DNA of 64,000 bases. Origin: Thermoanaerobaculia bacterium (GTDB lineage: Bacteria > Acidobacteriota > Thermoanaerobaculia > Multivoradales > JAGPDF01). This document shows positions 34,307 to 48,145 of the stretch, piece after piece; position 1 is the stretch's first letter, and each line of letters begins with the position of its first letter. Under the pieces are notes generated by a model. The model saw only the letters and a program-made list of their open reading frames with translations. It did not search any database and was not told the DNA's origin. The position numbers and the translations under genes are program-made. The stretch is taken from assembly GCA_039932315.1 (NCBI GenBank), contig JBDTQG010000005.1:21186-85185 (forward strand), read 5' to 3'.

Positions 34307-35740
34307 ATGACGCCACGACGACTGGGATGGATCTGTGCTCTTGCCGTTTTCGCTTTCGGATGTGCTGATTCCGGATTCGCACAGACGTCCGCGAACGCAT
34401 CCGGATCGACCGCAGAGGACGGCAATGCCGCCGGCGACCCCGCGGATTCGACCCCCGTACCGCTGGAAGACGGCAACGCGCTGAAGGTCAAGTTCGGCAT
34501 CGAAGGCAAGGCGAACTATCGCGACAGCCAACACCTCGCGGTGGTGAGTCCGTTCCCGTTCCCGCCGGACTTCCTGCCGCCGGGCGCAACGCGGTCGTTT
34601 CTCGAGACCGCGAACGAAGGCCAGCATCTCGAGATCTCGACCTTCACTCTGTATGCGACGGCCAGCTGGGGCTCGAGCGTCGAAGCGCATGCCAAGGTCG
34701 ATTTCATCGATCTCTACGACCGCAATCCGACGTCATCGGACAAGAAGGTCGACGTCGACGAGCTGTGGATCCGCTTCGGACAGGATCCGACGACCACTCT
34801 TCCAGAGTCCTTCGGTCTCTACGCGAAAGTCGGGAAGTTTGCCCACTTCGAACGTCAGAACGACCGGCACACGGAGAGCTACGGGCTGATTTCGACGGCG
34901 TTCAACCGTTTCGAAGATCAGGGTCTCGAGGTCGGCGCCGCGTTCGGCAAGCATTTCTATCTCAAGGGATCGCTGACGCAGGGCAATCCGCTTTTCTTCC
35001 GCGATCCGAACGCCCTCGCCGCCGACAACGGCTCACCCGATCGCGATCCGAGTGTTCAGCCGAACCCCGATCCGACGATTCTGTCGGGCTTTCCGATCTT
35101 CTATGACGCCGAAGTCGAGGATCTCGACGTCGACGGCGATCTCGAAGTCGGCGCCGGTCTCGGGTTGCGCTTCGGCGAACCGGGATCCGGGCACGAGATC
35201 AACTTCCTCGCCTGGGGCTACAAGCGGAAACTCGCGACGTCGGTCAAGCTCGAGGGCACGTTCTACGGCGGCGATCTCGACCTGTTGAACGGTCCATTCG
35301 ATTCTTTCAGCCTGCCGATCCACGGCGACAAGAAGCAGGAGGTCGGCGCGAATCTGTGGATCTATGAAGGCTCGCTGACGTTCTTCGGGCAGTACGTCGC
35401 CCAGGAGCTGGCGGGAATGGACCGCACCGGCTACGAGGGCGAGTTCGCCTGGAAGTTCGAGCTCCCCCTGGCGTGGGCAACCGCCGGCCGGCAGCTCTTC
35501 CCCTATGTACAGCCGGTCGTGCGGTACTCGTTTCTCAAGCCTGAATTCCAGGGTGGATCGCCGAGCTATCCAGCGCCTTCCGTGCGTTGGGAATGGACGA
35601 AGATCGACTACGGCGTCCGGCTGGGACTCATCGAAGGTGTCGACCTGACGGTCGAATACGCCGACAACGAAATGACTCTCGCGAACGGACGCAAAGTCTC
35701 GAACGACGAGTTGCTCGGCACCCTGCGCTTCAAGATGTGA
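34307..35740 (+). CDS. outer-membrane beta-barrel (porin-like) protein candidate
   Basis: Signal peptide (ICALAVFAFGCADSGFAQ). Alternating hydrophobic beta-strand pattern with Gly/Asp/Asn turns and aromatic-rich strand ends. C-terminus is LGTLRFKM. Confidence 0.6.
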   Translation: MTPRRLGWICALAVFAFGCADSGFAQTSANASGSTAEDGNAAGDPADSTPVPLEDGNALKVKFGIEGKANYRDSQHLAVVSPFPFPPDFLPPGATRSFLETANEGQHLEISTFTLYATASWGSSVEAHAKVDFIDLYDRNPTSSDKKVDVDELWIRFGQDPTTTLPESFGLYAKVGKFAHFERQNDRHTESYGLISTAFNRFEDQGLEVGAAFGKHFYLKGSLTQGNPLFFRDPNALAADNGSPDRDPSVQPNPDPTILSGFPIFYDAEVEDLDVDGDLEVGAGLGLRFGEPGSGHEINFLAWGYKRKLATSVKLEGTFYGGDLDLLNGPFDSFSLPIHGDKKQEVGANLWIYEGSLTFFGQYVAQELAGMDRTGYEGEFAWKFELPLAWATAGRQLFPYVQPVVRYSFLKPEFQGGSPSYPAPSVRWEWTKIDYGVRLGLIEGVDLTVEYADNEMTLANGRKVSNDELLGTLRFKM

Positions 35741-37058
35741 GGCGGGGCTCCGTGGCGGTGAAGATCGCCAGCGGATCCACTCCGCCGTTGTGCCAACCGG
35801 CCTCGACCGATTGCAGCTCACCCGCGGGAGCGAGGCGCGAAAAGCCCAGCTCCCGCAGGTCTTCCGCGAGCGCGAGCGCCGCGCTCCCGGAAAGGGCCGC
35901 GCCCTGCAGCCGGCCGCTCCACGGCGCGAATGCCGTGAGCGCCTGACGCAGTTCGCGAACCCCGTGCACCCGCACGGTCCGCAGCCCCGGCACCGGCCGG
36001 AAGAAAAGCTCACTCTCGATCAGCACCGTTCCCGCGACGAGATCCAGGACCGGCACACGACGCGCCCCCTGCCGCAGCGCCGCTTCCGCCCGCAGCTGCT
36101 GGACCGCAGCCGCGAGAGCACGGTCGATCGGCCCCGCGGGAAGGCGCGCGCTCTCGAGCTCGAGAGCCCAGGCGAGTGCGTCGGCGAGCTCGCCCGGGTC
36201 GCCGTCCGTGAAAACCGCCTGCACCGAGAGACAGCCCCGCTGATCGAAGAGGGCGATGTCCCGGGCCAGCGCGCGCGCGGTGCCGACGAGGTCGACATCG
36301 GTGCCCACCAGAGCGACGCTCGCTTTCGGCCCCTGAGCCAGAAGCCGCGCGCCGAATCTTTCACGCTGGCTTTCGACTGCGGGACCGGAGCCGTAGGCAA
36401 GCAGTCGCTCGACGCCTCCGAAGGCCGCGCTGAAAGAGGCTTCGTCGTCGCCCGGAAAGGTGACCGCGGCGAATCCGAGCGCCAGTGCGGGCTCCCGCGC
36501 CGCGAGCGCATCGATGAGTGCCGGAGTGAACCAGGGCTCGGCGGAGGCGTTTTTGAAGAGGACCGGCCGGCCGAGAAGAAGGGCCGGCAGCAGACTCTGC
36601 ACGGCGATCGCCGGAATGTTTCCCGGCAGGACGACGCCGCAACAGCCGCTGTGTTCTGCTGCCGCAGCGGGCATGGCGCGATCCGCAAGCGCGCGGGCGG
36701 GGCCCGCAGCGGCGCCACCGAGGACAACGAAGAGCGCTTCGGTGATTCCTTCCGCGGACAGGCCCGAGCTCTGCTGCAGCGGCATCAGAACGCGCTCGCG
36801 TTCACGGGTGCGGGGCTCCAGGAAGGTATCGATGACCTCACTCCAAACGTCGATGCGGCGCGCGCGTGGCACGCTCGCGATCGCGCGGCTCCCGTGAAGC
36901 GACAGGCGTTCGGCGATCGCCGCGAGCTCCCGGGGCTCGAATCGGCCGCGCGATGTGATCCCACCGAGCCGGTTGTCGCGCACTTCGTCACGTGGCTCGA
37001 ACCCTCCGGGAACGGAGTAGTCGCGGATCGCGCTTGGCGCAGCGGGCACGGTGGACAT
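35730..37058 (-). CDS. LuxC-like acyl-CoA reductase (aldehyde dehydrogenase superfamily)
   Basis: VVLPGNIPAIAVQSLLPALLLGRPVLFKNASAEP and DQRGCLSVQAVF (catalytic Cys context) match the remembered LuxC family pattern. Confidence 0.75.
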   Translation of the reverse strand: MSTVPAAPSAIRDYSVPGGFEPRDEVRDNRLGGITSRGRFEPRELAAIAERLSLHGSRAIASVPRARRIDVWSEVIDTFLEPRTRERERVLMPLQQSSGLSAEGITEALFVVLGGAAAGPARALADRAMPAAAAEHSGCCGVVLPGNIPAIAVQSLLPALLLGRPVLFKNASAEPWFTPALIDALAAREPALALGFAAVTFPGDDEASFSAAFGGVERLLAYGSGPAVESQRERFGARLLAQGPKASVALVGTDVDLVGTARALARDIALFDQRGCLSVQAVFTDGDPGELADALAWALELESARLPAGPIDRALAAAVQQLRAEAALRQGARRVPVLDLVAGTVLIESELFFRPVPGLRTVRVHGVRELRQALTAFAPWSGRLQGAALSGSAALALAEDLRELGFSRLAPAGELQSVEAGWHNGGVDPLAIFTATEPRLTS

Positions 37059-37542: not shown

Positions 37543-38607
37543 TCACTCGCTGGCGCGACCGAGCTCTTCGGCGAGGAGGGAGCAGCCACGGAGGTCGGCC
37601 TGGGGCGCGCGACCGGCGAGGCGGAAGCCGTCGCCTTCGCCCCCGCCGTCGACGCTTCCGAGATCTTCGGTCAGGAGGTGGAGAGCTGAACCGACGTTGG
37701 CAAGGTCGAAGAAGGCGAGGAGTCCGACCTCTCCCGCCGGCAGCTCAGCGAGAGAGACGGGGTCGAGCGCCCGCACCCTCATCCAGTGGGGGAGAAGGAA
37801 AAGACCGGGATCGCCGCCAGCAGACGAGGCGTAGGCTTGGCTGGTCAGCTCGGTCATCCCGTATTCCGTGACGATCGCTTCGCCGGCGAGGCCGAGCTGG
37901 GTGGCGAGTCGCGCATGCAGATCCTCCGGCGAGAGCTCGCGCTCCCGGCCCTTCAGCCCTCCGGTTTCGAACAGCACGGAGCCCGCGGGCAGGCGGAACT
38001 TGAGGTCGATCCGCGCCAGGAAGTCGAGCAGGTCGGCGAGGGCGATCGAGGTGGCGAGCACCATTACCGGTCGCCCCTCGCGCTGGCGCGCGCCGAACCA
38101 TGAGCGCGCCTTCGCCCCTTCGACACCGCGCGCCGCGAATGCGTAGTCGCTGCCCGGGCCGCCGTAGCGCGAGACGAGGTGCTCCACCATGAATCCCAGG
38201 CTCGAATCGGGAGCGATCGCCCGCGGCGGAACGAGCGCGAGCATCGGCGGCCGGGCACCGGAGTCGCCGCCCAGAGCGAAGCGCGGGAATGACGCGTCGA
38301 TCGCCGCGCGGTAGAGGTCGGGAAAGGGATGATGATGAACGCTGCGCGAACTGCTCAGTGTGCCGCTCGAACGGAAGATCTCGAGCGGAGCGCCGGTCGC
38401 AAGCTCCATCGAAGCGAACGCGGTGGCCGGAATGAGCGGTATCTCGCGCCACGAAGTGACGGCCGAGGGCACCCGGCCCGAGCGCTCGCAGACAGCCCGG
38501 TAAGGTTTCAGATTTTCGACCTGAAAAGCGAAAGCGGCGAGCGCGAGCGCTTCGAAAGGCTCTGCCGCGGGGTCGCTCAGAAAACGTGAAATCCGATCGA
38601 CGATCAC
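37543..38607 (-). CDS. LuxE-like acyl-protein synthetase / acyl-adenylate-forming enzyme
   Basis: FEALALAAFAFQVENLKPYRAVCE...VTSWREIPLIPATAF and FRSSGT match the remembered LuxE (PF04443-like) N-terminal pattern. GTG start. Confidence 0.75.
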   Translation of the reverse strand: MIVDRISRFLSDPAAEPFEALALAAFAFQVENLKPYRAVCERSGRVPSAVTSWREIPLIPATAFASMELATGAPLEIFRSSGTLSSSRSVHHHPFPDLYRAAIDASFPRFALGGDSGARPPMLALVPPRAIAPDSSLGFMVEHLVSRYGGPGSDYAFAARGVEGAKARSWFGARQREGRPVMVLATSIALADLLDFLARIDLKFRLPAGSVLFETGGLKGRERELSPEDLHARLATQLGLAGEAIVTEYGMTELTSQAYASSAGGDPGLFLLPHWMRVRALDPVSLAELPAGEVGLLAFFDLANVGSALHLLTEDLGSVDGGGEGDGFRLAGRAPQADLRGCSLLAEELGRASE

Positions 38608-38680: not shown

Positions 38681-39382
38681 ATGCTGATTTCAAGCCCCAT
38701 GTGTCCGCAGTCCCGACCTCTCCTGGCGATCGCCGCCGCAGTCCTCCTCGGTGCACTTCCGGCCGCTGGCGCGGATTTCAACGGCCGCGTGCAACTGCTC
38801 GAAAAAGGCAAGCCGTCCGTGGACAAAACGCTGGCGGTCGATGCGACGGTCGTGGTTTTCGAGACCGGGCGGACGATGCCTGCGATGAAGCCTGTGAACG
38901 TCGAAATGGCGACGTTCAAGAAGGAGTTCGCGCCCCGGATTCTCGTCATTCCGGTCGGTTCCACGGTGCGATTCCCGAATCAGGACCCGATCCTGCACAA
39001 CGTCTTTTCGGTCTCCGGACGCAACTCCTTCGATCTCGGGCTGCTGGGCAAGGGGCCGGGAAAAGTCGCGACCTTCCGCGAGCCCGGAATCGTGCGCGTC
39101 TTCTGCAACGTCCATCACGGAATGTTCGGCTACATCTTCGTCGTGGCCTCCCCTTTCTGGGCCCACGTCGATGCGACCGGCGCTTTTCATATCCCGGGAG
39201 TACCGGCCGGCGCCGGCAAGCTGACCGTGTGGAACGAACGCAGCTCTCCCACGACGCGCGATCTGACGCTGCCGCTTCCGACTGGAACTCCGCTCACGAT
39301 CGGGATCGACATCACGATGCCGCGAATCCCGCCGCACAAGAACAAGCTCGGGCAGTCGTACACAGGAGGTAGTTATGGCTGA
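38681..39382 (+). CDS. periplasmic cupredoxin (type-1 copper site-like) protein with flanking Ig/CarboxypepD_reg-like strands
   Basis: Signal peptide present. Candidate ligand set is His106 in DPILHNVFS plus Cys142-x2-His145-x2-Met148 in VFCNVHHGMFG, which is amicyanin/plastocyanin-like spacing. Start is ATG 38681 or 38699. Confidence 0.75.
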   Translation: MLISSPMCPQSRPLLAIAAAVLLGALPAAGADFNGRVQLLEKGKPSVDKTLAVDATVVVFETGRTMPAMKPVNVEMATFKKEFAPRILVIPVGSTVRFPNQDPILHNVFSVSGRNSFDLGLLGKGPGKVATFREPGIVRVFCNVHHGMFGYIFVVASPFWAHVDATGAFHIPGVPAGAGKLTVWNERSSPTTRDLTLPLPTGTPLTIGIDITMPRIPPHKNKLGQSYTGGSYG

Positions 39383-42008
39383 GCGGCGCCGCGGACTGTC
39401 GCTCGGCACGCGAATTTTTCTCGGCACCGGGCTGCTGCTCGTGCTGGCTCTGGGACTCGCGATCGCGATCACATCCCTTCTCGGCAATCGCATCGGGCTC
39501 GCGAGCGCGACCGAGCGCATTCGCGCCAGCAACTCGGTCCAGGCCGTTTCGCAGGCGCAGCGCTACGAGGAGCTTCAGCTCCAGACCCAGATTCTGACCG
39601 CCGATCCCGAGCTCAAGGCCTACCTGCTGCGGGCCATCGACGAAAAAGATCAGCTCTCGCTTCTCGACCAGCTCGACGAACGGCAGAAGGACCTGGGCTA
39701 CGACTTCGCGCTGATGATCGATCCCCAGGGCCGGCTGCTGGTGCGCACGGACCAGCCGGACGCGCCGCCGGTGGACCTCTCGGCGCGACCGATGGTCAAG
39801 AAGGTGCTGGTCGATTTCGAAGCCAGCGGCGTCTGGCAGGAAGGCAACAAGATCTACGAAGCGGTCGCCGTTCCGCTGACGCTGTCGCAGAACGTGTTCG
39901 CCTATCTCGTGGTCGGATTCGCGATCAACGACGTGCGGGCGCTCGACGTCAAGCGGATCACCGGCACCGAAGTCGCCTATCTCACCGGCACGTCGGCCGG
40001 AGTCGCCGTCGTCGCTTCGACTCTCGGCCCGGCGCAGCAGGACAGTCTCATCGCCGACCTGCGGAATCGTGGCGACCTGCTTTCCCGGGTGACCGAGAAG
40101 GGGCAGGCGGTCGACCAGGTCGAAGTGTCGCTCGACAACTCCCGCTGGCTGGCGCTCCTCGCTCCGCTCAAGGATGCTGCCGGGGCGTCGGCCGGAGCGT
40201 CGGTATCTCTGACGTCGCTCGACAAGGAGCTTGCCGGTTACACCCGGATCCGCAACCTGCTTCTGATTCTCGGCGTGGTCACGATCGCCGCCGCGCTGGT
40301 CGTCTCCTATCTGCTGTCGCAGCTCGCATTCCGGCCGGTGCGTCAGCTCGTGGCCGCAGCGACCGCGGCACGATCGGGCAACTACGACGTGCCGATGCCG
40401 ACCGGTGGACCGGGTGAAGTGGCCGACCTCGCGAGCGCGTTCACAACCCTGCTGATCGATCTGCGCGAGCGTCGCGACATGGCGGCTTACGTGGCTTCGC
40501 TGTCGCGGAACCTGCCGGAGCCGGTGGCCCGCGGCGATGCGCCCTCGCGGCCGGAGCGTGCGCGCCTGACTCTTCTCGGCGTCGATCTGCGGCGCTTCGC
40601 GAATCCGCGTCAGAACGCCGATCCCGACGAAGTTTTCCAGATGCTGTCGCGCGATCTCAAGCGCACGCTGAATGCGGTGCAGACGAACAACGGCCACCTC
40701 GAAGCCGTGTTCGGCCATCGCGCCATCGCGAGTTTTCACGGACCCATGCAGGCCGACCGGGCCCTCGCTGCGGCTTCCGAGATCCTCGCCACCGTCGCGC
40801 AGCACGATGCCGATTTCGATCCCGCATCGGCTCCGGCCATGGCGATCGCATCGGGCGAAGCCCTGACCGGCGCAGTGAACTTCAGCGATCAGGCCGAGCG
40901 CACGGTGGTCGGGCTTCCCCTGCAGCAGGTCGAAGGACTGCTGCGCGAGGCCGGCGCCGGCGATGTGCTGCTCGCGCCGGCGGTGCACGCGGAGGTCGCG
41001 GACAGCCTCTCGAAGTCCGGCATCGAGCTCGAGGCGCAACGCGGACTGCTTTCGACACAGGCGCTCTTCGTCTTGACCCGGGAAGAGGCGACGCGGATGG
41101 CCGGGCGCTCGCCCTCCCGCTCCGTCACCGCAGTCACGGCGATGCCGGCCGCCGCGCGCGGCAACTTCGACACGCTGTCGGATGTCGGGCCGGGAACTTT
41201 GCTGGGCTCGCGATTCGAAATTCTCTCGACACTCGGTGCCGGCGGAATGGGTGTGGTCTTCAAGGCGCGCGACCGCGAGCTGGACGATCTCGTCGCGCTC
41301 AAGATGCTCAAGCGCGAAGTCGCCGGCGACCGCAACCTCGTCGAACGACTGAAGAGCGAACTCAAGCTCGCGCGGAAGATCACGCACCCGAACATTCTCC
41401 GCACCTTCGATTTCGGCGAAATCGACGGCATTCCCTTCATCTCGATGGAGTACGTCCGCGGGCTCACCCTTCGCGCCATGCTGGAGCGCTCCGGGCGTCT
41501 GCCCTATTCGGCAGGCCTGCGCCTCGCACGGCAGCTGACTTCGGGGCTCGCCGCAGCGCATTCTCAGGCGATCATCCATCGCGACATCAAGCCGGAAAAC
41601 ATCATTCTCGACTCGCTCGGCAACGCGAAGCTGATGGACTTCGGTCTCGCGCGTCCGGTCACCCGGCTCACGCCGGGTCAGACCCAGGCCGGTTTCATCG
41701 TCGGCACACCGCACTACCTCGCCCCGGAACAGCTCGAAGGCAAGGAGCCCGATCAGCGCGCCGACGTTTACGCCTGCGGCGTCGTGATGTTCGAGATGTT
41801 CACCGGCCGTCTGCCGTTTGGCGGCGAAAATGCGATGGAGATCATCCTCAAGCACCTGAAGGAGCCGCCAGCGGCACCGCACGAATTCTGGCCGGAGATC
41901 CCGCCAGAGCTGGACCGCCTGCTCCTTCGTTGTCTCGAAAAGGGGCCCGACGCCCGCTACGCCGACGCCGGCGCGCTCGAAGCCGAGCTCGACAAGCTGA
42001 CGGCCTGA
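39375..42008 (+). CDS. transmembrane sensor Ser/Thr protein kinase (periplasmic Cache-like domain, HAMP, degenerate class III cyclase-homology domain, kinase)
   Basis: TM1 at aa 13-35, a ~255-aa periplasmic domain, TM2 at aa 293-316. HAMP (FRPVRQLVAAATAARSGNYDVP...LASAFTTLLIDL). Cyclase-like region aa ~396-568. Kinase motifs GAGGMGVVFKA, ALKML, HRDIKPENIIL, DFGLAR, APEQ. Confidence 0.85.
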   Translation: MAERRRGLSLGTRIFLGTGLLLVLALGLAIAITSLLGNRIGLASATERIRASNSVQAVSQAQRYEELQLQTQILTADPELKAYLLRAIDEKDQLSLLDQLDERQKDLGYDFALMIDPQGRLLVRTDQPDAPPVDLSARPMVKKVLVDFEASGVWQEGNKIYEAVAVPLTLSQNVFAYLVVGFAINDVRALDVKRITGTEVAYLTGTSAGVAVVASTLGPAQQDSLIADLRNRGDLLSRVTEKGQAVDQVEVSLDNSRWLALLAPLKDAAGASAGASVSLTSLDKELAGYTRIRNLLLILGVVTIAAALVVSYLLSQLAFRPVRQLVAAATAARSGNYDVPMPTGGPGEVADLASAFTTLLIDLRERRDMAAYVASLSRNLPEPVARGDAPSRPERARLTLLGVDLRRFANPRQNADPDEVFQMLSRDLKRTLNAVQTNNGHLEAVFGHRAIASFHGPMQADRALAAASEILATVAQHDADFDPASAPAMAIASGEALTGAVNFSDQAERTVVGLPLQQVEGLLREAGAGDVLLAPAVHAEVADSLSKSGIELEAQRGLLSTQALFVLTREEATRMAGRSPSRSVTAVTAMPAAARGNFDTLSDVGPGTLLGSRFEILSTLGAGGMGVVFKARDRELDDLVALKMLKREVAGDRNLVERLKSELKLARKITHPNILRTFDFGEIDGIPFISMEYVRGLTLRAMLERSGRLPYSAGLRLARQLTSGLAAAHSQAIIHRDIKPENIILDSLGNAKLMDFGLARPVTRLTPGQTQAGFIVGTPHYLAPEQLEGKEPDQRADVYACGVVMFEMFTGRLPFGGENAMEIILKHLKEPPAAPHEFWPEIPPELDRLLLRCLEKGPDARYADAGALEAELDKLTA

Positions 42009-42058
42009 TCCCTCTCGGGTCCGCAGGAATCGACGGGCCCGCGGGTTTCTGAGGAGGC

Positions 42059-42763
42059 GTGGCAGCGAGCGATCCCCGGCCGGACGAGACCCTACCCGAG
42101 CTCGATGCGGATTGGGAGCTTCTTGCGCGTGCCGCGCTGGGGCGGGACTCTGTCGCGGGAGGGGCGGGGGCCGACGACGCCTTCGCCGCGCTGGTCGAGC
42201 GGCACCAGGAGCGCGTCGTCCGGTTGTGTACGCACTGGCTCGGCGATCGCGAGGCGGGACAGGACGCTGCACAGGAGGTCTTTCTCAAGGCCTTTCGTCA
42301 TGCCGGTTCCGTCGAGCCCCGGGGCCGCTTCTACACCTGGCTGTACCGGGTTGCCGTCAATCATTGCCTGAACCAGCTGCGTCGTCGCCGGATCGCGAGA
42401 TTCTTCTCGCTGCAGGGGATGCGCACTGCCGGAGATCGCGCCGCGGGTGATGCGGACCTCGAGTTCGATCCCGCGGACGGAGCTCCCGGAGCCGAGCGCA
42501 TTGTCCTGGCGCGCGAGCGCTGGCGAACGACGCGTGAGCGGCTCGACGCACTGCCGGAAAGCCAGCGCGTCGTGCTGCTCCTGGCGAAGTTCGAAGGGCT
42601 TTCCGGTCGGGAGATTGCCGAAACGCTGGGCATCACGGAAGGCGCCGTCGAGAGCCGGCTGGTTCGCGCGATGCGGCGCCTGACGGCGCAGGAAGAGCCG
42701 GAAGAGCGGGTTTCATCACCCGGGGAGAGATCGAATGAGTCGGCGAGCGATGCAGGAGGCTGA
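42059..42763 (+). CDS. ECF-type RNA polymerase sigma factor
   Basis: GTG 42059 preceded by GAGGAGG. Region 2 (QDAAQEVFLKAFRH..FYTWLYRVAVNHCLN) and region 4 (LPESQRVVLLLAKFEGLSGREIAETLGITEGAVESRLVRA). Confidence 0.9.
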   Translation: MAASDPRPDETLPELDADWELLARAALGRDSVAGGAGADDAFAALVERHQERVVRLCTHWLGDREAGQDAAQEVFLKAFRHAGSVEPRGRFYTWLYRVAVNHCLNQLRRRRIARFFSLQGMRTAGDRAAGDADLEFDPADGAPGAERIVLARERWRTTRERLDALPESQRVVLLLAKFEGLSGREIAETLGITEGAVESRLVRAMRRLTAQEEPEERVSSPGERSNESASDAGG

Positions 42764-43184
42764 GGCGCAGTGGGCAAAGGCGCAGCTGGCGGTCGGTGCC
42801 GGCAGGGCTCCGGGCGCTGTGGACGATCCCCTTTTGCGGCGCACAACTGAGGCGGCGGTGGGGGATCTCCGCCGGACCTGGATCGACCTCGAGCTGCCGC
42901 CGGTTGCGATTCCGCCGGACTTCGCCCGACGGATTTCCCGTGCCTGGAATCTGGAGCGGAGTCGGGGGTCGGGCGCGATGTTGTCGCTCGGCTGGATGCG
43001 CGCCGCCGCCGCGGCAGCGCTCTTCGCGGGAGTCGCGCTCGGAACGGCGCTGGCGGTGAACGATGAGTCATCCCGGATCGCTGCATCCGACGACGACGCC
43101 TGGCAGTCGTCCTCGCTTTCCGAGGAATACCTGAGCGCCCTCGCCCTGCCGGAAGCGCCGGTCTCGTCCGTGGAGCAGCCGTGA
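42735..43184 (+). CDS. single-pass membrane protein, anti-sigma factor candidate by position only
   Basis: Starts 29 nt inside the sigma gene. One TM helix (AAAAALFAGVALGTALAV) and a short acidic extracytoplasmic tail. No zf-HC2 motif. Confidence 0.5.
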   Translation: MSRRAMQEAEAQWAKAQLAVGAGRAPGAVDDPLLRRTTEAAVGDLRRTWIDLELPPVAIPPDFARRISRAWNLERSRGSGAMLSLGWMRAAAAAALFAGVALGTALAVNDESSRIAASDDDAWQSSSLSEEYLSALALPEAPVSSVEQP

Positions 43185-43732
43185 AGCGCAGTTGGTTGAT
43201 CCTGGCTCTGCTTCTTTCGGTCGGCGTGAACTGCGGCCTGCTCGGCATCTCGATCCTCCGCCACCGCTGGTGGAACGGGATGGAACGCGGCGACCGTTTC
43301 CCGGGGCACGAAGGTGCGTTCCTCGCGGAGCGCCTCCACCTCAACGGCGAGACGCGCAAGAGTTTCCTCGAGCTGCAACGCGCGCTCGGCGAGCGTGTGC
43401 GCGCCGGGCGGAAAGCGATCGACGAGGGGCGGCGGACGCTTCGTCAGGAGCTCGTCCAGCCGGCGCCCGACCGCGCGCGGGTCGATGCGCTGCTGAACGA
43501 AATCGGGCAGCAGCAGAGCGCGCTCGAGCGCGCTCTGGTGGACAATGTCCTGGCGGCTCGTGAGCTGCTCGACGAGCCGGCCGAGGGACAGTACCTGCAC
43601 TTCATCGAACGCTTCGGCAGCGGGATCGGCGGCGCGCGCGGTCACCCCGGAGAGCCGCCGCCGCGATCGGATCGTGCACCCGGCGAGAGCCGGCGCCGGC
43701 AGGGCTTTCGTCGTCCGGGCGGAGCTCCATAG
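43181..43732 (+). CDS. periplasmic CpxP/Spy/ZraP-like (heavy-metal-resistance family-like) protein
   Basis: GTG 43181 in a GTGA overlap. N-terminal signal/anchor (LILALLLSVGVNCGLLG). Helical region with L-x-x-x-Q type repeats (FLELQRAL, LLNEIGQQQSALERAL). Confidence 0.6.
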   Translation: MKRSWLILALLLSVGVNCGLLGISILRHRWWNGMERGDRFPGHEGAFLAERLHLNGETRKSFLELQRALGERVRAGRKAIDEGRRTLRQELVQPAPDRARVDALLNEIGQQQSALERALVDNVLAARELLDEPAEGQYLHFIERFGSGIGGARGHPGEPPPRSDRAPGESRRRQGFRRPGGAP

Positions 43733-43791
43733 CCGCCGTCTTCGCGGGTCAGCCTGCTTCGGCGCCCGGCGCGCATGATAATTTTCCCGCG

Positions 43792-44757
43792 ATGATCCGC
43801 GTCATGATTTTTCAGGAAGACGACACGGTGCGCTGCGGCGGCGCCGAGCTGCTGCCGACCGCGCTGGACCCCGCGATTGCCGGCTGGATCGACATCGACG
43901 GCGAGAACGAAGCGGCTGAACAGCTTCTTCGGGATCAGAATTTTCATCCTCTGGCGATCGAAGATACGTTCACATTGCAGCATCAGCCGCGCGCCGAGGA
44001 GTATGCCGACCATCTCTTCGTGATCGTGCGCGGAATCGACTTCAATACGGATCAAGCCGTCGAAGAGCTGCAGACGCTGAAGCTCGCCGCATTTCTGCGT
44101 CGCAATCTGCTCATCACCGTGCATCGCAGGCCCCTGCGCAGCGTTCAGGCCGTGCGCGCGCGCATCGAGGAGAACCGGCGCGCGCTCCCCGGTGGAGTCG
44201 TGCAGATCCTGTGGAGCATCTGTGACGAGCTGATCGATCTCTACTTTCCGATCATCGACGATATCGGCGGGCGCATCGAAGCCCTCGAACAGGAAGTGCT
44301 CAACGACGCGCAGCGCGAGCATCTGCAGGCGATTCTGGATCTGCGGCGCAAGCTCGGCGTGATGCGGCGGACCATGTTGCCGCATCGGTCGGTGTTCGGC
44401 CATCTGGCGAATTCGCGGGATGCCCTGTTCGACGCCACGGCGTCGCTCAATTTCCGCGACACGCTGGAGAACGTCCTGCGGCTCACCGACGCCATCGATC
44501 AGCAGCGGGATCAGCTGTCGAACGTGAAAGACACCTATCTTTCGGTGGTTTCGCAGCGCACCAACGAGATCATGAAGGTGCTGACCCTGTTCTCGGCGAT
44601 CATGCTTCCCTTGACGTTCATCGCCGGTGTCTACGGTATGAATTTCGAGCACATGCCGGAGCTCTCCAGTCAGGACGGCTACTTCATCGTGCTGGGCGTC
44701 ATGGCGGCGGTGGCGATCGGCATGACGATCTGGTTCCGTCGCCGCCGCTGGTTGTAG
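43792..44757 (+). CDS. corA: CorA family magnesium/cobalt/nickel transporter
   Basis: HPLAIEDT in the N-terminal domain, two C-terminal TM helices, and the YGMNF signature (GVYGMNFEHMPEL). Confidence 0.9.
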   Translation: MIRVMIFQEDDTVRCGGAELLPTALDPAIAGWIDIDGENEAAEQLLRDQNFHPLAIEDTFTLQHQPRAEEYADHLFVIVRGIDFNTDQAVEELQTLKLAAFLRRNLLITVHRRPLRSVQAVRARIEENRRALPGGVVQILWSICDELIDLYFPIIDDIGGRIEALEQEVLNDAQREHLQAILDLRRKLGVMRRTMLPHRSVFGHLANSRDALFDATASLNFRDTLENVLRLTDAIDQQRDQLSNVKDTYLSVVSQRTNEIMKVLTLFSAIMLPLTFIAGVYGMNFEHMPELSSQDGYFIVLGVMAAVAIGMTIWFRRRRWL

Positions 44758-44812: not shown

Positions 44813-44847
44813 CGCCTCGCTTCTTTCGATCAGCGGCAGGCGAGGCG
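44813..44847. other. 8-bp perfect inverted repeat (cgcctcgc / gcgaggcg) spanning the stop codon of the TPR kinase gene
   Basis: Read directly between the convergent corA and kinase genes. No U-tract on either strand. Confidence 0.25.
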
Positions 44848-47490
44848 CTTCCGCGCGGCTTCCAGGGCGGCGACGGTGTCGATCAGCAGACGATCCGAAG
44901 TCGCTTCGGGGAGCGTGTGTCCGCTCGCGGCGGCTGCGGTGAGCGCGCTGCAGCGCTCGGGATCGAGTGCCGGCGCGAGCAGCGCGACCTCGGCCGCGGC
45001 GCGGAAGCGGTCGCGTCCGAGCGTCCGGGCGCCGCCGTCCTTCTCGAGGCTCGCGGCCGCTCGGAGTGCCGCGCGTGCCCGTTGCCGCGCTTTCGTGGTG
45101 TCTCCGGACAGATGATAGGCGGACGCCTCCGAAGCCAGCCGGCCGAGGGCGATGGTGCGGTTGTCGAGGCTGTCGGGGTCGCGCGCCAGGAGACCGGAAA
45201 GCAGACTCTCTCCCCGCGCTAGACAGAGAAGCGCGCCCTCCGGCTGATGTTCGAGCAGATGCAGCTCGGCTCTTTCGTTGAGCTCCTCGGCGAGGTCGCG
45301 CACCGACTGGGCGTCCGCGGGCTCTGCGGCCAGCCGCTGCTCGAGCGCCGCGAGAAGAGCGTCGAGCGCGGGTCTCGCTTCGGCAAATCGTCCGAGCTGG
45401 CGAAATGCGTGCGCTTGCAGACTGAGCACGAAATTCCGGTCCCGCTTCAGTTGCGGATCGTCGGGCCACGTCGCGACGAGCTTCTCGGCCCGAGCGAGAG
45501 CAGGCCCCGTTTCCGCAAGCGCGGCGTCGAGCTCGCCCAGTTGAACGTGGTCGTAGAGCGATGTCAGGAGGATGATGGAGAAGTCGCGGTTCGCCTCCTT
45601 CTCGTTCGGAAAGCGGGCGACGAGCTCGCGCGCGATCTCCTTGGCGCGGGCGTGCGCCTGGAGCGCTTCCGCCGGCTTCGCTTTCACCAGCAGGTTGGCG
45701 AAGTCCACCGCAATGACGAGCCTCTGCCGCTCGCTCTTCAGGCTGCCGGCACCCAGCCGGGCGCCCTCTTCGGCGAGCGGGAGCGCCAGCCGGTAGTGGG
45801 CCTCGGCGTCGGCGGCGCGGCCCTGAGCCGTGGCGACCCGCGCGCGGGAGAGCGCCAGCCCGGCGCGCAGCTGCAGAACTTCGGCGTCGACGGCGCCGGG
45901 CGCAGCGGTCGCTTCGGCGATCACGCGGTCCGCCCGTGCATAGCTCCGGTCGGCTCCGTCGAGATCGCCCAGATTCGCGACGTGCGGGCCGCCTTGCAGG
46001 TCGCCGACGCGCGCCCAGCTCCTGGCGAGCTCCATCGCCAGCGCGCGATCCGCCGCGACGTCCTTCGACAGGGTCTCGAGATAGTGGGTCGCGTGCTCGA
46101 GAATCGCCTTGCGGACCGAAAGCGAGCCGGGCAGCGCGGCGACCTGATCGTGCACGTCGTGCAGCAAAGCCTCCGAGAGACCGCGAACGTCATCGAAGCG
46201 ACGCTGGGTGCGGGCGCGTTCCCGCTCGGCGACGCGCGCCTGCCAGAGAACCGCGACCAGCGCGACGGTGAGCGCCGCCGCAGCGAGCGCCGCGGCGGCG
46301 ACGGCGAGACGATGCCGGTGCAGGAATCGAGACAGGCGATAACGCACAGTGTCGGGGCGAGCCGCGACGGGTCGGCCATCGAGATGACGGCGAATGTCGT
46401 CGGCGAAAGCCTCGGCTGTCGGATAGCGGCGTTCGGGCAGGTCGGCAAGCGCCCGCGTGACGATGGCATCCAGATCGCCTTCGAGCCGTTCCGCGAGGCG
46501 CAGCGATTGGCTGTCGGCTGCGGAGCGCTCGCGTACCTTGCGGCTCGGGCGCGTCGGAAACGTTGGAGTGGTGGGAGCGAACGGCGCCGATGCGACGGAG
46601 CTCCGGGGCTCCCGCGGCGCTTCGCCGACCAGCAGCGCATAGGCGAGTGCTCCGAGGCCCCAGACGTCGGTCGCTGTCGTCGTCGGCGCTCCGCTCAGCT
46701 GCTCCGGGGCGGCGTAGGACGGCGTCATGATCTGAACGCCGCGCTCGGTCGCGAGTCCTCCGCCGCCGGGCTCGAGCAGTTTCGCGATGCCGAAGTCGAG
46801 AAGCTTGACCTCGCCGTCCGGCGTCACGAGCACGTTCGAAGGTTTGAGGTCGCGGTGGACGACGAGATTGCGATGGGCGTAGCTCACGGCGTCGCAGATC
46901 GAGAGCAGGATGGCGAGACGCTGCTCCACGCTCAGCGCGTGCTGGACGGCGAACTGATGCAGGGGCAGGCCGTCGACGCGCTCCATCACGAGGTAGGGGC
47001 GGCCGTCGGCGAGCGCGCCGCCATCCAGCAGTCGTGCGATCGCCGGATGCTCGAGGCGGGCGAGAATCTGACGCTCGCGCACGAAACGAGCCACGAGATC
47101 GTCGGTGTCCAGGCCGCGCCGCAGGATCTTCACGGCCACGCGCTGCGCGAAAGTACCGTCATCGCGCTCGCCGGCGAAAACGTCGGCCATTCCGCCGCGG
47201 CCGAGGAGATCCAGCACACGATAGGCACCGGCGTGCGCCGGCGGCGGCTCCGCCGGAAGCGGCTCGGCCTCGTCGTTCTGCGGCGCGAGCGCGAGCGGCC
47301 GGTCCAGAAGATCACGGCCGGTGCGATCGGCCGCGAGCAGGCGGGCGAGAGCGTCGGCAAAAGCGGGATCGGCGTGCCGGATCTCCCGCAGACGCGCGCC
47401 GCATTCGTCGGCGGCGAGCTCCACGAGCTCGCCGAAGCTTTCCGTCAGAAGACGCCAGCGCGCAGCGTCGGGTGTCTCGCCGCCGCTCAA
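44830..47490 (-). CDS. Ser/Thr protein kinase with one TM helix and periplasmic TPR repeats
   Basis: GRGGMADVFAG, VAVKILR, HRDLKPSNVLV, DFGIAK and APEQ, then TM (LAVAAAALAAAALTVALVAVLW) and a ~480-aa helical repeat region. Confidence 0.9.
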   Translation of the reverse strand: MSGGETPDAARWRLLTESFGELVELAADECGARLREIRHADPAFADALARLLAADRTGRDLLDRPLALAPQNDEAEPLPAEPPPAHAGAYRVLDLLGRGGMADVFAGERDDGTFAQRVAVKILRRGLDTDDLVARFVRERQILARLEHPAIARLLDGGALADGRPYLVMERVDGLPLHQFAVQHALSVEQRLAILLSICDAVSYAHRNLVVHRDLKPSNVLVTPDGEVKLLDFGIAKLLEPGGGGLATERGVQIMTPSYAAPEQLSGAPTTTATDVWGLGALAYALLVGEAPREPRSSVASAPFAPTTPTFPTRPSRKVRERSAADSQSLRLAERLEGDLDAIVTRALADLPERRYPTAEAFADDIRRHLDGRPVAARPDTVRYRLSRFLHRHRLAVAAAALAAAALTVALVAVLWQARVAERERARTQRRFDDVRGLSEALLHDVHDQVAALPGSLSVRKAILEHATHYLETLSKDVAADRALAMELARSWARVGDLQGGPHVANLGDLDGADRSYARADRVIAEATAAPGAVDAEVLQLRAGLALSRARVATAQGRAADAEAHYRLALPLAEEGARLGAGSLKSERQRLVIAVDFANLLVKAKPAEALQAHARAKEIARELVARFPNEKEANRDFSIILLTSLYDHVQLGELDAALAETGPALARAEKLVATWPDDPQLKRDRNFVLSLQAHAFRQLGRFAEARPALDALLAALEQRLAAEPADAQSVRDLAEELNERAELHLLEHQPEGALLCLARGESLLSGLLARDPDSLDNRTIALGRLASEASAYHLSGDTTKARQRARAALRAAASLEKDGGARTLGRDRFRAAAEVALLAPALDPERCSALTAAAASGHTLPEATSDRLLIDTVAALEAARKRLACR

Positions 47491-48083
47491 TCGTCGCTCC
47501 GCAGACAGTCGTAGAGGAAGGCGCGGGCGCGGCGCCAGTCGCGGCGCAGCGTGCGCTCCGACTTCAGCGAGGTCTCGGCGAGAGTCTCGAAGGAGAGGCC
47601 GGCGAAGAAATGAAGCTCGACGAGGGTTGCGAGCTCGGGTTCGACGAGGGCCAGACGCCCCAGCGCCTCATCGAGCTCGAGGAGCTCAGCGGGTCGCTCG
47701 GGAGAGATGAAGTCCTGCCCGGTATGCAGATGCTCGACCGCCGCACCGGAACCGCGTTTCCCGGCCAGCCGGCGCCGCGCGCCGTCGATCAGGATCTGCC
47801 GCATGATCCGCGCAGCGAGCGAAAGGAAATGGTGACGGTCGGCGACTTCGAGCGCCCCCGAGCCGGTGAGGCGAAGGTAGAGCTCGTTCACAAGAACGGT
47901 CGTCGTCATCGTGTCGCGCGCGCCCAGCCGGCGGCGCTGCGCGTGGCCGAGCCGGCGAAGCTCGTCGTAGACCGCGCGATACAACCGGTCGGCAGCGCTC
48001 GCGTCGCCACGGCGCGCTGCCGCGACCCAGGAAGTGATCGGTTCCGCGGCGAGCGGCGCGCCGTCGCCGGAGTCGTCTGCCAT
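47487..48083 (-). CDS. ECF sigma factor of the kinase-associated type (Sigma70_ECF / TIGR02999-like)
   Basis: ITSWVAAARRGDASAADRLYRAVYDELRRLG and the region-4-like ELHFFAGLSFETLAE...SERTLRRDWRRARAFL. The stop overlaps the kinase start by 4 nt. ATG 48083 is preferred over TTG 48107. Confidence 0.85.
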   Translation of the reverse strand: MADDSGDGAPLAAEPITSWVAAARRGDASAADRLYRAVYDELRRLGHAQRRRLGARDTMTTTVLVNELYLRLTGSGALEVADRHHFLSLAARIMRQILIDGARRRLAGKRGSGAAVEHLHTGQDFISPERPAELLELDEALGRLALVEPELATLVELHFFAGLSFETLAETSLKSERTLRRDWRRARAFLYDCLRSDD

Positions 48084-48105
48084 CGCTTTTCGAGTGTAAC
48101 TCAAC

Positions 48106-48145
48106 AAAAAAATGGACCCCGGAACGCACGATGCGCCAAGGGTCC
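48106..48145 (-). terminator. intrinsic (rho-independent) terminator
   Basis: Minus-strand RNA is GGACCCUUGGCGCAUCGUGCGUUCCGGGGUCC followed by A and U7. The GC-rich stem has about 13 bp with small bulges. It lies 77 nt after the helicase stop and 22 nt before the sigma ATG. Confidence 0.7.

Follow-up and report, generated by a model that had tools for sequence, protein, structure and literature searches.

A cupredoxin–receptor kinase pair adjoining an ECF sigma/anti-sigma cassette and corA in Thermoanaerobaculia

A stretch of 64,000 nucleotides (the window) from a metagenome-assembled genome (MAG) of Thermoanaerobaculia (Acidobacteriota; assembly GCA_039932315.1, contig JBDTQG010000005.1, positions 21,186 to 85,185), an uncultured soil acidobacterium with a 67% GC genome, carries six consecutive open reading frames (ORFs) at 38681-44757. 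All six lie on the plus strand at coordinates that were checked, and their predicted products are a cupredoxin, a receptor Ser/Thr kinase, an extracytoplasmic function (ECF) sigma factor, an anti-sigma factor, a Metal_resist protein and CorA. The cupredoxin, kinase and sigma products have NCBI MAG counterparts of 100% identity. The original prediction, made from the sequence alone, had treated this group as a translationally coupled module and as a single operon headed by the copper protein. The single operon was not supported, since a separate conserved promoter-like element belongs to each of the sigma, anti-sigma and corA genes. The description that fits the locus best is that of two separable systems, together with corA, in a conserved association.

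Gene layout and transcription signals

The cupredoxin gene (38681-39382, +) encodes 233 amino acids, with the NCBI start placed at Met7 (position 38699). It overlaps the gene for the receptor Ser/Thr kinase (39375-42008, +; 877 aa) by 8 nt (ATGGCTGA), such that the kinase ATG at 39375 precedes the cupredoxin stop codon at 39380-39382. The ECF sigma gene (42059-42763, +; 234 aa) begins with a GTG after a gap of 50 nt, and the anti-sigma gene (asf, 42735-43184, +; 149 aa, alternative ATG at 42750) starts 29 nt within it. A GTGA overlap at 43181-43184 links asf to the Metal_resist gene (43181-43732, +; 183 aa), and a gap of 59 nt separates the latter from corA (43792-44757, +; 321 aa), the gene for a CorA Mg2+/Co2+ channel. 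All these junctions, like the common strand, had been described previously and were confirmed. The GAGGAGG that had been read as the Shine-Dalgarno sequence of the sigma gene fared less well. It ends 1 nt before the GTG at 42059 and is not conserved among homologues, so the kinase-sigma junction shows no translational coupling. The coupled module therefore stands for the cupredoxin/kinase, sigma/anti-sigma and anti-sigma/Metal_resist junctions and falls at the kinase/sigma junction.

Two minus-strand ORFs, at 42716-43645 (309 aa) and 42361-43359 (332 aa), lie over the asf and Metal_resist genes. The former has gene-like GC content by codon position and was preferred by a crude GC3-based caller, and composition alone does not separate the two plus-strand genes from it. 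Homology does, and on that ground the antisense ORF was rejected as a gene. Both antisense ORFs were treated as shadow ORFs because the plus-strand products have homologues and a Pfam match.

Two copies of a promoter-like motif, CAGGA-N14-GGGTT, lie ahead of the start and inside the end of the sigma gene. The first, P1 (42024-42047, +; CAGGAATCGACGGGCCCGCGGGTT), starts 16 nt past the kinase stop, and 11 nt lie between its end and the sigma GTG. The second, P2 (42689-42712, +; CAGGAAGAGCCGGAAGAGCGGGTT), lies inside the 3′ end of the sigma gene, where it overlaps the region for the C-terminal tail, and the 22 nt from there to the asf ATG contain a Shine-Dalgarno-like stretch, GGGGAGAG. These are the only two matches in the window, against 0.28 expected. 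Among the loci in which the kinase is followed by the sigma gene, 23 of 24 have the extended form gCGCAGGA-N14-GGGTTyCA at 4-64 nt past the kinase stop (P1), and 21 of 24 have a P2 copy ~22 nt upstream of the anti-sigma ATG. The half-sites and their spacing are constant; the spacer sequence varies, as do the residues encoded at P2. The motif also occurs in L090 and in the kinase-less locus L087. In three loci a hairpin-like insert separates P1 from the sigma start, and elsewhere inserts are located between the kinase stop and P1; insertion on either side fits a promoter better than a translational signal. Position and form thus suggest that P1 and P2 are ECF-type autoregulatory promoters.

A further element precedes corA. 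In the window, the -10-like box CGTGATAATTT (43774-43784, +; CATGATAATTT, TGATAAT) ends 7 nt before the corA ATG and is AT-rich within its GC-rich surroundings. Nearly all sigma-linked loci have a conserved CGTGATAAT(T/C)TT at 7-10 nt ahead of the corA start, as does L022, where corA alone follows the kinase. The box is probably a -10 element, which suggests a separate corA promoter and a leaderless or near-leaderless mRNA. A scan for sigma-70 promoters and terminators returned neither at any junction, an Rfam scan of 37-48.5 kb of the window found nothing, and the predicted RNA fold of the kinase-sigma gap was unremarkable (z = 0.18). As no terminator, Rfam family or unusual fold marks the junctions, read-through from the kinase gene into the sigma gene may still occur.

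The encoded proteins

Profile searches against Pfam and NCBIfam, which had been proposed as a check on the original domain calls, directly supported Pkinase, HAMP, Sigma70_r2/r4_2, Metal_resist and CorA. After correction the domain calls hold, those of the cupredoxin, dCache and cyclase-like domains with indirect support.

Behind its signal peptide, the cupredoxin has a cupredoxin domain (about aa 73-155) and an Ig-like/CarboxypepD_reg-like domain (about aa 159-210); this second beta-sandwich domain precedes a conserved C-terminal tail, PxIPPHxNKxGxxY. The Pfam Copper-bind profile scores the window protein at 17.7 bits, under its cutoff, but H106, C142, H145 and M148 are invariant (Met in 99%) among 85 homologues and show the amicyanin-like spacing C-x2-H-x2-M. 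An AlphaFold2 (AF2) model with a predicted local distance difference test score (pLDDT) of 87 was matched by Foldseek to pseudoazurin, plastocyanin and amicyanin (E ~2e-6, probability 1.0). The ligand set and the modelled fold support a periplasmic protein with a predicted type-1 (blue) copper site, as had been proposed. Its gene stands directly upstream of the kinase gene in 81 of 81 loci of the genome scan.

The kinase is built from a first transmembrane (TM) helix, a periplasmic dCache domain (aa 38-296; 39486-40262), a second TM helix, HAMP (aa 316-364), a cyclase-homology domain (approximately aa 395-560) and a Hanks kinase domain (aa 614-863). Pfam assigns HAMP (E 1.7e-8) and Pkinase (E 3.5e-53) to the window protein. 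The dCache call was made without a Pfam match in that protein, where scanning of the sensor and middle segments at E up to 10 yielded nothing. Nevertheless, it was borne out by PF14827 (dCache), which is recorded for most kinase homologues, and by the AF2 model of aa 38-296 (pLDDT 93.5), for which the top Foldseek matches are dCache sensors (E 7e-10). The matches include the histidine kinase and chemoreceptor sensors vpHK1S-Z8, DctB, Tlp3, PctA and LuxQ. The region has the defining dCache architecture of a long N-terminal helix and two PAS-like modules between two TM helices.

For the middle domain, class III cyclase homology was found with the family profile only, in a search against the PDB (2w01, E 1.8e-8; 6fht, 7.9e-8; 3r5g, 1e-5), which upholds the earlier cyclase-like call as genuine homology. 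The position of the first metal-binding Asp carries Asp or Glu, and at the second, the GD(G/E) position, every relative has G-H-R or G-A-R. Because this second metal-binding Asp is replaced, the domain is predicted to be catalytically dead. The Hanks motifs of the window kinase are intact (LGAGGMGVV, VALKML, IHRDIKPEN, MDFGLA and LAPEQ), and the G-loop, VAxK, HRD, DFG and APE motifs are likewise intact in all cupredoxin-linked kinases.

The sigma factor matches Sigma70_r2 (E 1.4e-16) and Sigma70_r4_2 (E 1.6e-16) in Pfam as well as TIGR02937 (E 1.4e-28; 99.6 bits against a cutoff of 42.9), and has the region 2 and region 4 domains only, as ECF (group 4) sigma factors do. ECF43 sigma factors such as EcfP are devoid of the acidic DAED motif of region 2.2 and are phosphorylated there (PMC8999054). 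In an alignment with E. coli RpoE, the corresponding position of the present family reads E(72%)-A-R/L-D(99%); the window sigma has AGQD with Glu65 before it, and no Ser/Thr occurs at the DAED-equivalent positions in the family alignment or in the window protein. The original prediction had invoked the class of sigma factors controlled by Ser/Thr kinases. With its acidic region 2.2 motif retained, the sigma factor is not, judging from these residues, of the phospho-dependent EcfP/ECF43 type.

The 149-aa product of asf had been called anti-sigma-like by position only, a limitation that family homology now removes. NCBIfam NF052375 (‘anti-sigma factor’) is matched by 8 of the 15 family members (best E 1.3e-10) and PRK13920 by 4 of the 15; the L087 and L089 homologues match at E 4e-7 and 1.6e-6, respectively. 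The matches come from NCBIfam alone, as searches with the family against Pfam and PDB sequences gave nothing meaningful. The window copy, whose N-terminus is degenerate, had no profile match of its own in the Pfam, NCBIfam and PDB searches. On this family evidence, the 149-aa ORF is assigned to a real anti-sigma family. In its members, W49, LELPP and PPGF(A)xRV lie in the N-terminal part, which is cytoplasmic; a single TM helix follows, and the periplasmic tail is short and acidic and contains the conserved motif W..SL(S/A)EEYL. No HxxxCxxC zinc motif is present, none of the 15 has a Pfam match to zf-HC2 or RskA, and some show by eye a zinc-less remnant, ARLRREPEL.

The protein encoded next, previously described as CpxP-like, belongs to the Metal_resist family (PF13801, E 3.2e-15; 56.8 bits against a cutoff of 29.2), is membrane-anchored and periplasmic, and has an invariant Asn in its N-terminal TM helix across homologues. 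The profile match supports membership of the Metal_resist family, but the family name is all that points to metal: across 22 homologues, no conserved His, Cys or Met was seen. No match to CpxP, Spy, ZraP or CnrX emerged from a PDB sequence search and, although PF13801 was matched, no clear LTxxQ motifs of the CpxP/Spy/ZraP kind were seen by eye. The assignment of CorA is supported by Pfam (E 1.5e-77), by TIGR00383 (263 bits against a cutoff of 200.75) and by a YGMNF motif in the translation.

Neighbourhood conservation and competing explanations

The conservation survey suggested by the original prediction was carried out by scanning species-representative genomes with the kinase sensor region, which returned 79 loci, all from Thermoanaerobaculia, Holophagales or unclassified Acidobacteriota MAGs. 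In about 24 of these, sigma, anti-sigma and Metal_resist genes lie downstream of the kinase gene, usually followed by corA, and the kinase, sigma, anti-sigma, Metal_resist order is found in about 28 loci altogether. This order is conserved well past close relatives, down to kinases of 42% (L089) and 31% (L090) identity, both of which are followed by the sigma gene and have no cupredoxin gene. Five loci have corA alone next to the kinase gene, without the sigma trio. About 50 kinase loci carry GAF-HD and FHA-GAF-adenylate cyclase genes instead of the sigma gene, with a gene for a porin-like lipoprotein upstream. Approached from the sigma side, eight homologues (52-65% identity) were sampled, and seven of these have a kinase gene immediately upstream. 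In L087, which is the exception, the order is LuxE, the promoter-like motif, sigma, anti-sigma and Metal_resist, without kinase, cupredoxin or corA.

The majority array, exemplified by L001:6012-14395, consists of five genes, namely those for the porin-like lipoprotein (446 aa), the cupredoxin, the kinase, a GAF-HD protein (396 aa), whose gene overlaps the kinase stop, and an FHA-GAF-adenylate cyclase (558 aa). It suggests an output through phospho-Thr and cyclic nucleotide monophosphate (cNMP) in the sister lineages. In the window, a 477-aa protein with a lipobox-like AFGC and a beta-barrel-like sequence (34307-35740, +; no Pfam match) is 57% identical to the product of the gene that, in GAF-HD-type loci, immediately precedes the cupredoxin gene. 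Between its gene and that of the cupredoxin lie LuxC-like (35730-37058) and LuxE-like (37543-38607) genes on the minus strand.

A neighbour-joining tree of the kinases, distance-based and midpoint-rooted and hence provisional, places the divergent sigma-linked kinases at the base, the GAF-HD type in one derived clade, and the corA-only loci within the sigma-linked clade. From this topology, the kinase-sigma linkage is probably, if provisionally, ancestral and was lost several times. A first tree had presented the sigma cassette as a late capture, a view that was revised once the divergent L089 and L090 were added. Three members of the kinase family are pseudokinases without the catalytic Asp, the HRD motif reading HLG, HLR or HGA (L089:3398-5986, L090:1648-4149, and L091:6001-8571, P0090), and two of these loci (L089 and L090) are still followed by the sigma cassette. 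At L091 the upstream position is taken by a 4Fe-4S ferredoxin gene, with no cupredoxin gene.

From these observations a mechanism can be proposed. The secreted type-1-copper cupredoxin, translationally coupled to the receptor Ser/Thr kinase, would constitute a two-gene periplasmic sensor in which the cupredoxin contacts the kinase dCache domain and so conveys its copper-loading or redox state, in the way that LuxP is read by LuxQ. The signal would then pass through HAMP and a catalytically dead cyclase-homology dimer to the intact Hanks kinase. In what resembles a canonical ECF20-type cassette, the sigma factor would be held by a zinc-less single-pass anti-sigma factor, with whose short periplasmic SLSEEYL tail the membrane-anchored Spy/CpxP/CnrX-like Metal_resist protein may make contact, similar to CnrYXH. 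Sigma would act at P1 to express its own gene and at P2 to express those for anti-sigma and Metal_resist, and corA, with its own -10-like box, would form a third unit. The kinase is most likely to supply a second, modulatory input to the sigma/anti-sigma complex, because its adjacency to sigma is old; such an input would follow the PknB model and not EcfP-type activation through region 2.2. The region would thus consist of three or four adjacent units and not one integrated operon, with the kinase as a likely second input to the ECF cassette, a reading held with about even confidence.

Several points weigh against this proposal. Region 2.2 of sigma has no conserved Ser/Thr, and none is conserved in the cytoplasmic part of the anti-sigma factor in the family alignment. 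The cassette has its own promoter-like elements, which are promoter-like by position and form only, and occurs kinase-free in L087. Conversely, the kinase keeps every catalytic motif after loss of sigma, in the ~50 GAF-HD/FHA-cyclase loci, the five corA-only loci and L092. In L089 and L090, the deepest sigma-linked loci, the link cannot be phosphorylation, since the catalytic Asp has been lost. Finally, the upstream LuxE gene is also conserved in the flanking synteny, which means that some of the adjacency is accounted for by vertical inheritance alone. The case for a functional link between the kinase and the sigma/anti-sigma complex is weakened by the fact that either partner was lost repeatedly and independently, and by the pseudokinases in the oldest linked loci. 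The chance of such a link, for which deep synteny is the sole support, is put close to one half.

The same observations lend substance to juxtaposition without functional coupling, in which the sensor pair and the cassette would be independent neighbours by shared descent and the kinase would have its targets elsewhere, for example among FHA-domain or cNMP proteins. We regard this as a serious possibility, if short of probable. Each half is found alone, the sigma factor combines a normal acidic region 2.2 with its own anti-sigma factor and conserved promoter-like sites, LuxE has been kept alongside, and the FHA-GAF-cyclase and GAF-HD proteins of the majority context are natural phospho-Thr and cNMP partners for the kinase. 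What mere proximity accommodates less readily is that the adjacency has outlasted both divergence of the kinase to 31% identity and gene changes on both outer flanks, that the two genes stay on the same strand at a spacing of 14-130 nt with no terminator, and that a kinase lies directly upstream in all but one of the eight sampled members of the sigma subfamily.

It is improbable that the local target of the kinase is instead CorA or metal-ion homeostasis, with the sigma trio inserted between linked genes. The five loci in which cupredoxin, kinase and corA follow one another with nothing between would fit such an arrangement, as would the conserved promoter-like box of corA; however, those loci are nested in the sigma-linked clade and look like secondary deletions of the trio, and corA is absent from the sigma-linked loci L019, L077 and L089 and from all GAF-HD-type loci. 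Less probable still is an EcfP/ECF43-type system, in which sigma would be intrinsically inactive until phosphorylated in region 2.2 and the 149-aa protein would be no anti-sigma factor: the kinase gene does stand immediately upstream, as in kinase-linked ECF groups (PMC7826278, PMC8999054), but the DAED-equivalent is acidic (Asp in 99%) and free of Ser/Thr, the downstream family matches anti-sigma models, and a true PF07638 sigma gene with an overlapping kinase gene 3 kb away looks quite different.

If the kinase does act on the cassette, the fullest form of the proposal would be an ECF sigma factor with two periplasmic inputs, namely the redox or copper state of the cupredoxin, relayed by the dCache-HAMP kinase to sigma/anti-sigma, and envelope or metal stress, relayed by the Spy/CnrX-like protein to the anti-sigma tail, with the same sensor wired to a cNMP module in sister lineages. 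This is tentative and, taken as a whole, somewhat unlikely. If true, the swapping of cupredoxin-kinase outputs, to FHA-GAF-cyclase and GAF-HD in the sisters, would provide a natural case in a new class of receptor kinases, and the locus could reveal how one sigma factor combines two inputs. The blue-copper protein and the dCache-HAMP-pseudocyclase-Hanks kinase together make a candidate periplasmic redox/copper sensor. The most original element of the locus is the invariant pairing of cupredoxin and receptor kinase with alternative outputs in sister lineages, which should be useful for studies of signalling evolution. A limited literature search turned up no account of a cupredoxin paired with a receptor kinase of this kind.

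Comparison with known systems

Among known ECF groups, the cassette is closest in gene layout to ECF281 and ECF290 (formerly ECF20, the CnrH lineage), in which sigma is followed by an anti-sigma factor at +1 and a heavy-metal-resistance protein at +2 (PMC7826278). The present trio has the same layout, with the PF13801 protein at +2, and autoregulation is likely. It differs in that its anti-sigma factor has neither the zinc finger of the ECF281 type nor the RskA domain of the ECF290 type, and in its conserved receptor Ser/Thr kinase at -1. Among annotated trios without a kinase, the nearest is L086 on an Agrobacterium plasmid (NZ_CP124965.1), which has the order sigma, hypothetical protein, ‘periplasmic heavy metal sensor’. 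Its sigma factor is only 36% identical, and comparison of the anti-sigma family with its +1 protein by hhalign was not significant. A tblastn search of plasmids with the Metal_resist protein gave no match.

The small single-pass anti-sigma factor with a short periplasmic tail and the membrane-anchored periplasmic partner also recall CnrY and CnrX of the CnrYXH system (ECF291). CnrX-type sensors bind metal through a His/Glu/Met ligand set. The gene order here is not cnrY-X-H, and no CnrX-like His/Glu/Met set is conserved. The CnrYXH order is seen at L085, a kinase-free locus on a Sphingomonas plasmid (NZ_CP061036.1), beside genes for a copper oxidase, CopCD and a P-type ATPase.

Kinase-linked ECF groups are typically without an anti-sigma factor, ECF267, with a kinase and an anti-sigma factor that is FecR-like, being the sole named exception, and an unresolved one (PMC7826278). 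The present sigma factor shares with ECF267 the combination of a linked kinase and a co-encoded anti-sigma factor. While kinase-linked ECF sigma factors are thought to dispense with an anti-sigma factor, here, in a deep and well-sampled instance, a receptor kinase has stayed together with a complete anti-sigma cassette. As in the ECF43 pairs EcfP/PknT and EcfK/PknS (PMC8999054, PMC13147305), the gene for a Hanks kinase adjoins that for an ECF sigma factor in a conserved neighbourhood. Unlike in ECF43, sigma keeps its acidic region 2.2 residues and has a co-encoded anti-sigma factor, and the kinase is encoded upstream of sigma and has the topology of a histidine kinase, with an N-terminal dCache and a C-terminal kinase domain.

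The window itself holds a second sigma/kinase pair 3 kb downstream, on the minus strand at 44830-48107. Its PF07638 Sigma70_ECF sigma gene (47487-48107; E 5e-40) overlaps by 4 nt the gene (44830-47490) for a Ser/Thr kinase of 886 aa whose kinase domain is N-terminal, and the sigma factor has a Thr-rich TMTTTVLVNE where DAED would be. By these features, the pair resembles the classical, phospho-dependent (ECF43-like) type. Its neighbours are corA on one side and, on the other, a DinG-like helicase gene, which in related loci directly follows corA.

A kinase input onto an anti-sigma-controlled sigma factor, the mechanism judged most likely here, resembles that of mycobacterial PknB, which acts on the anti-sigma factors RseA (of SigE) and RshA (of SigH). 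However, the gene for PknB lies apart from those sigma genes, and peptidoglycan is what its PASTA domains sense. On the sensory side, LuxQ docks the periplasmic protein LuxP, and the cupredoxin is likewise envisaged as a separate periplasmic protein that docks on a dCache sensor. The nearest precedent found for a route from Cache and HAMP to a Hanks kinase is a Cache_heme-HAMP receptor that signals through a separate Ser/Thr kinase (bioRxiv 10.64898/2026.05.25.727664). In both systems a periplasmic redox-cofactor signal would travel via Cache and HAMP to a Ser/Thr kinase. In the acidobacterial system, Cache, HAMP and kinase belong to one polypeptide with a predicted dead cyclase domain between them, and the cofactor is carried by a separate type-1-copper cupredoxin instead of a heme c insertion.

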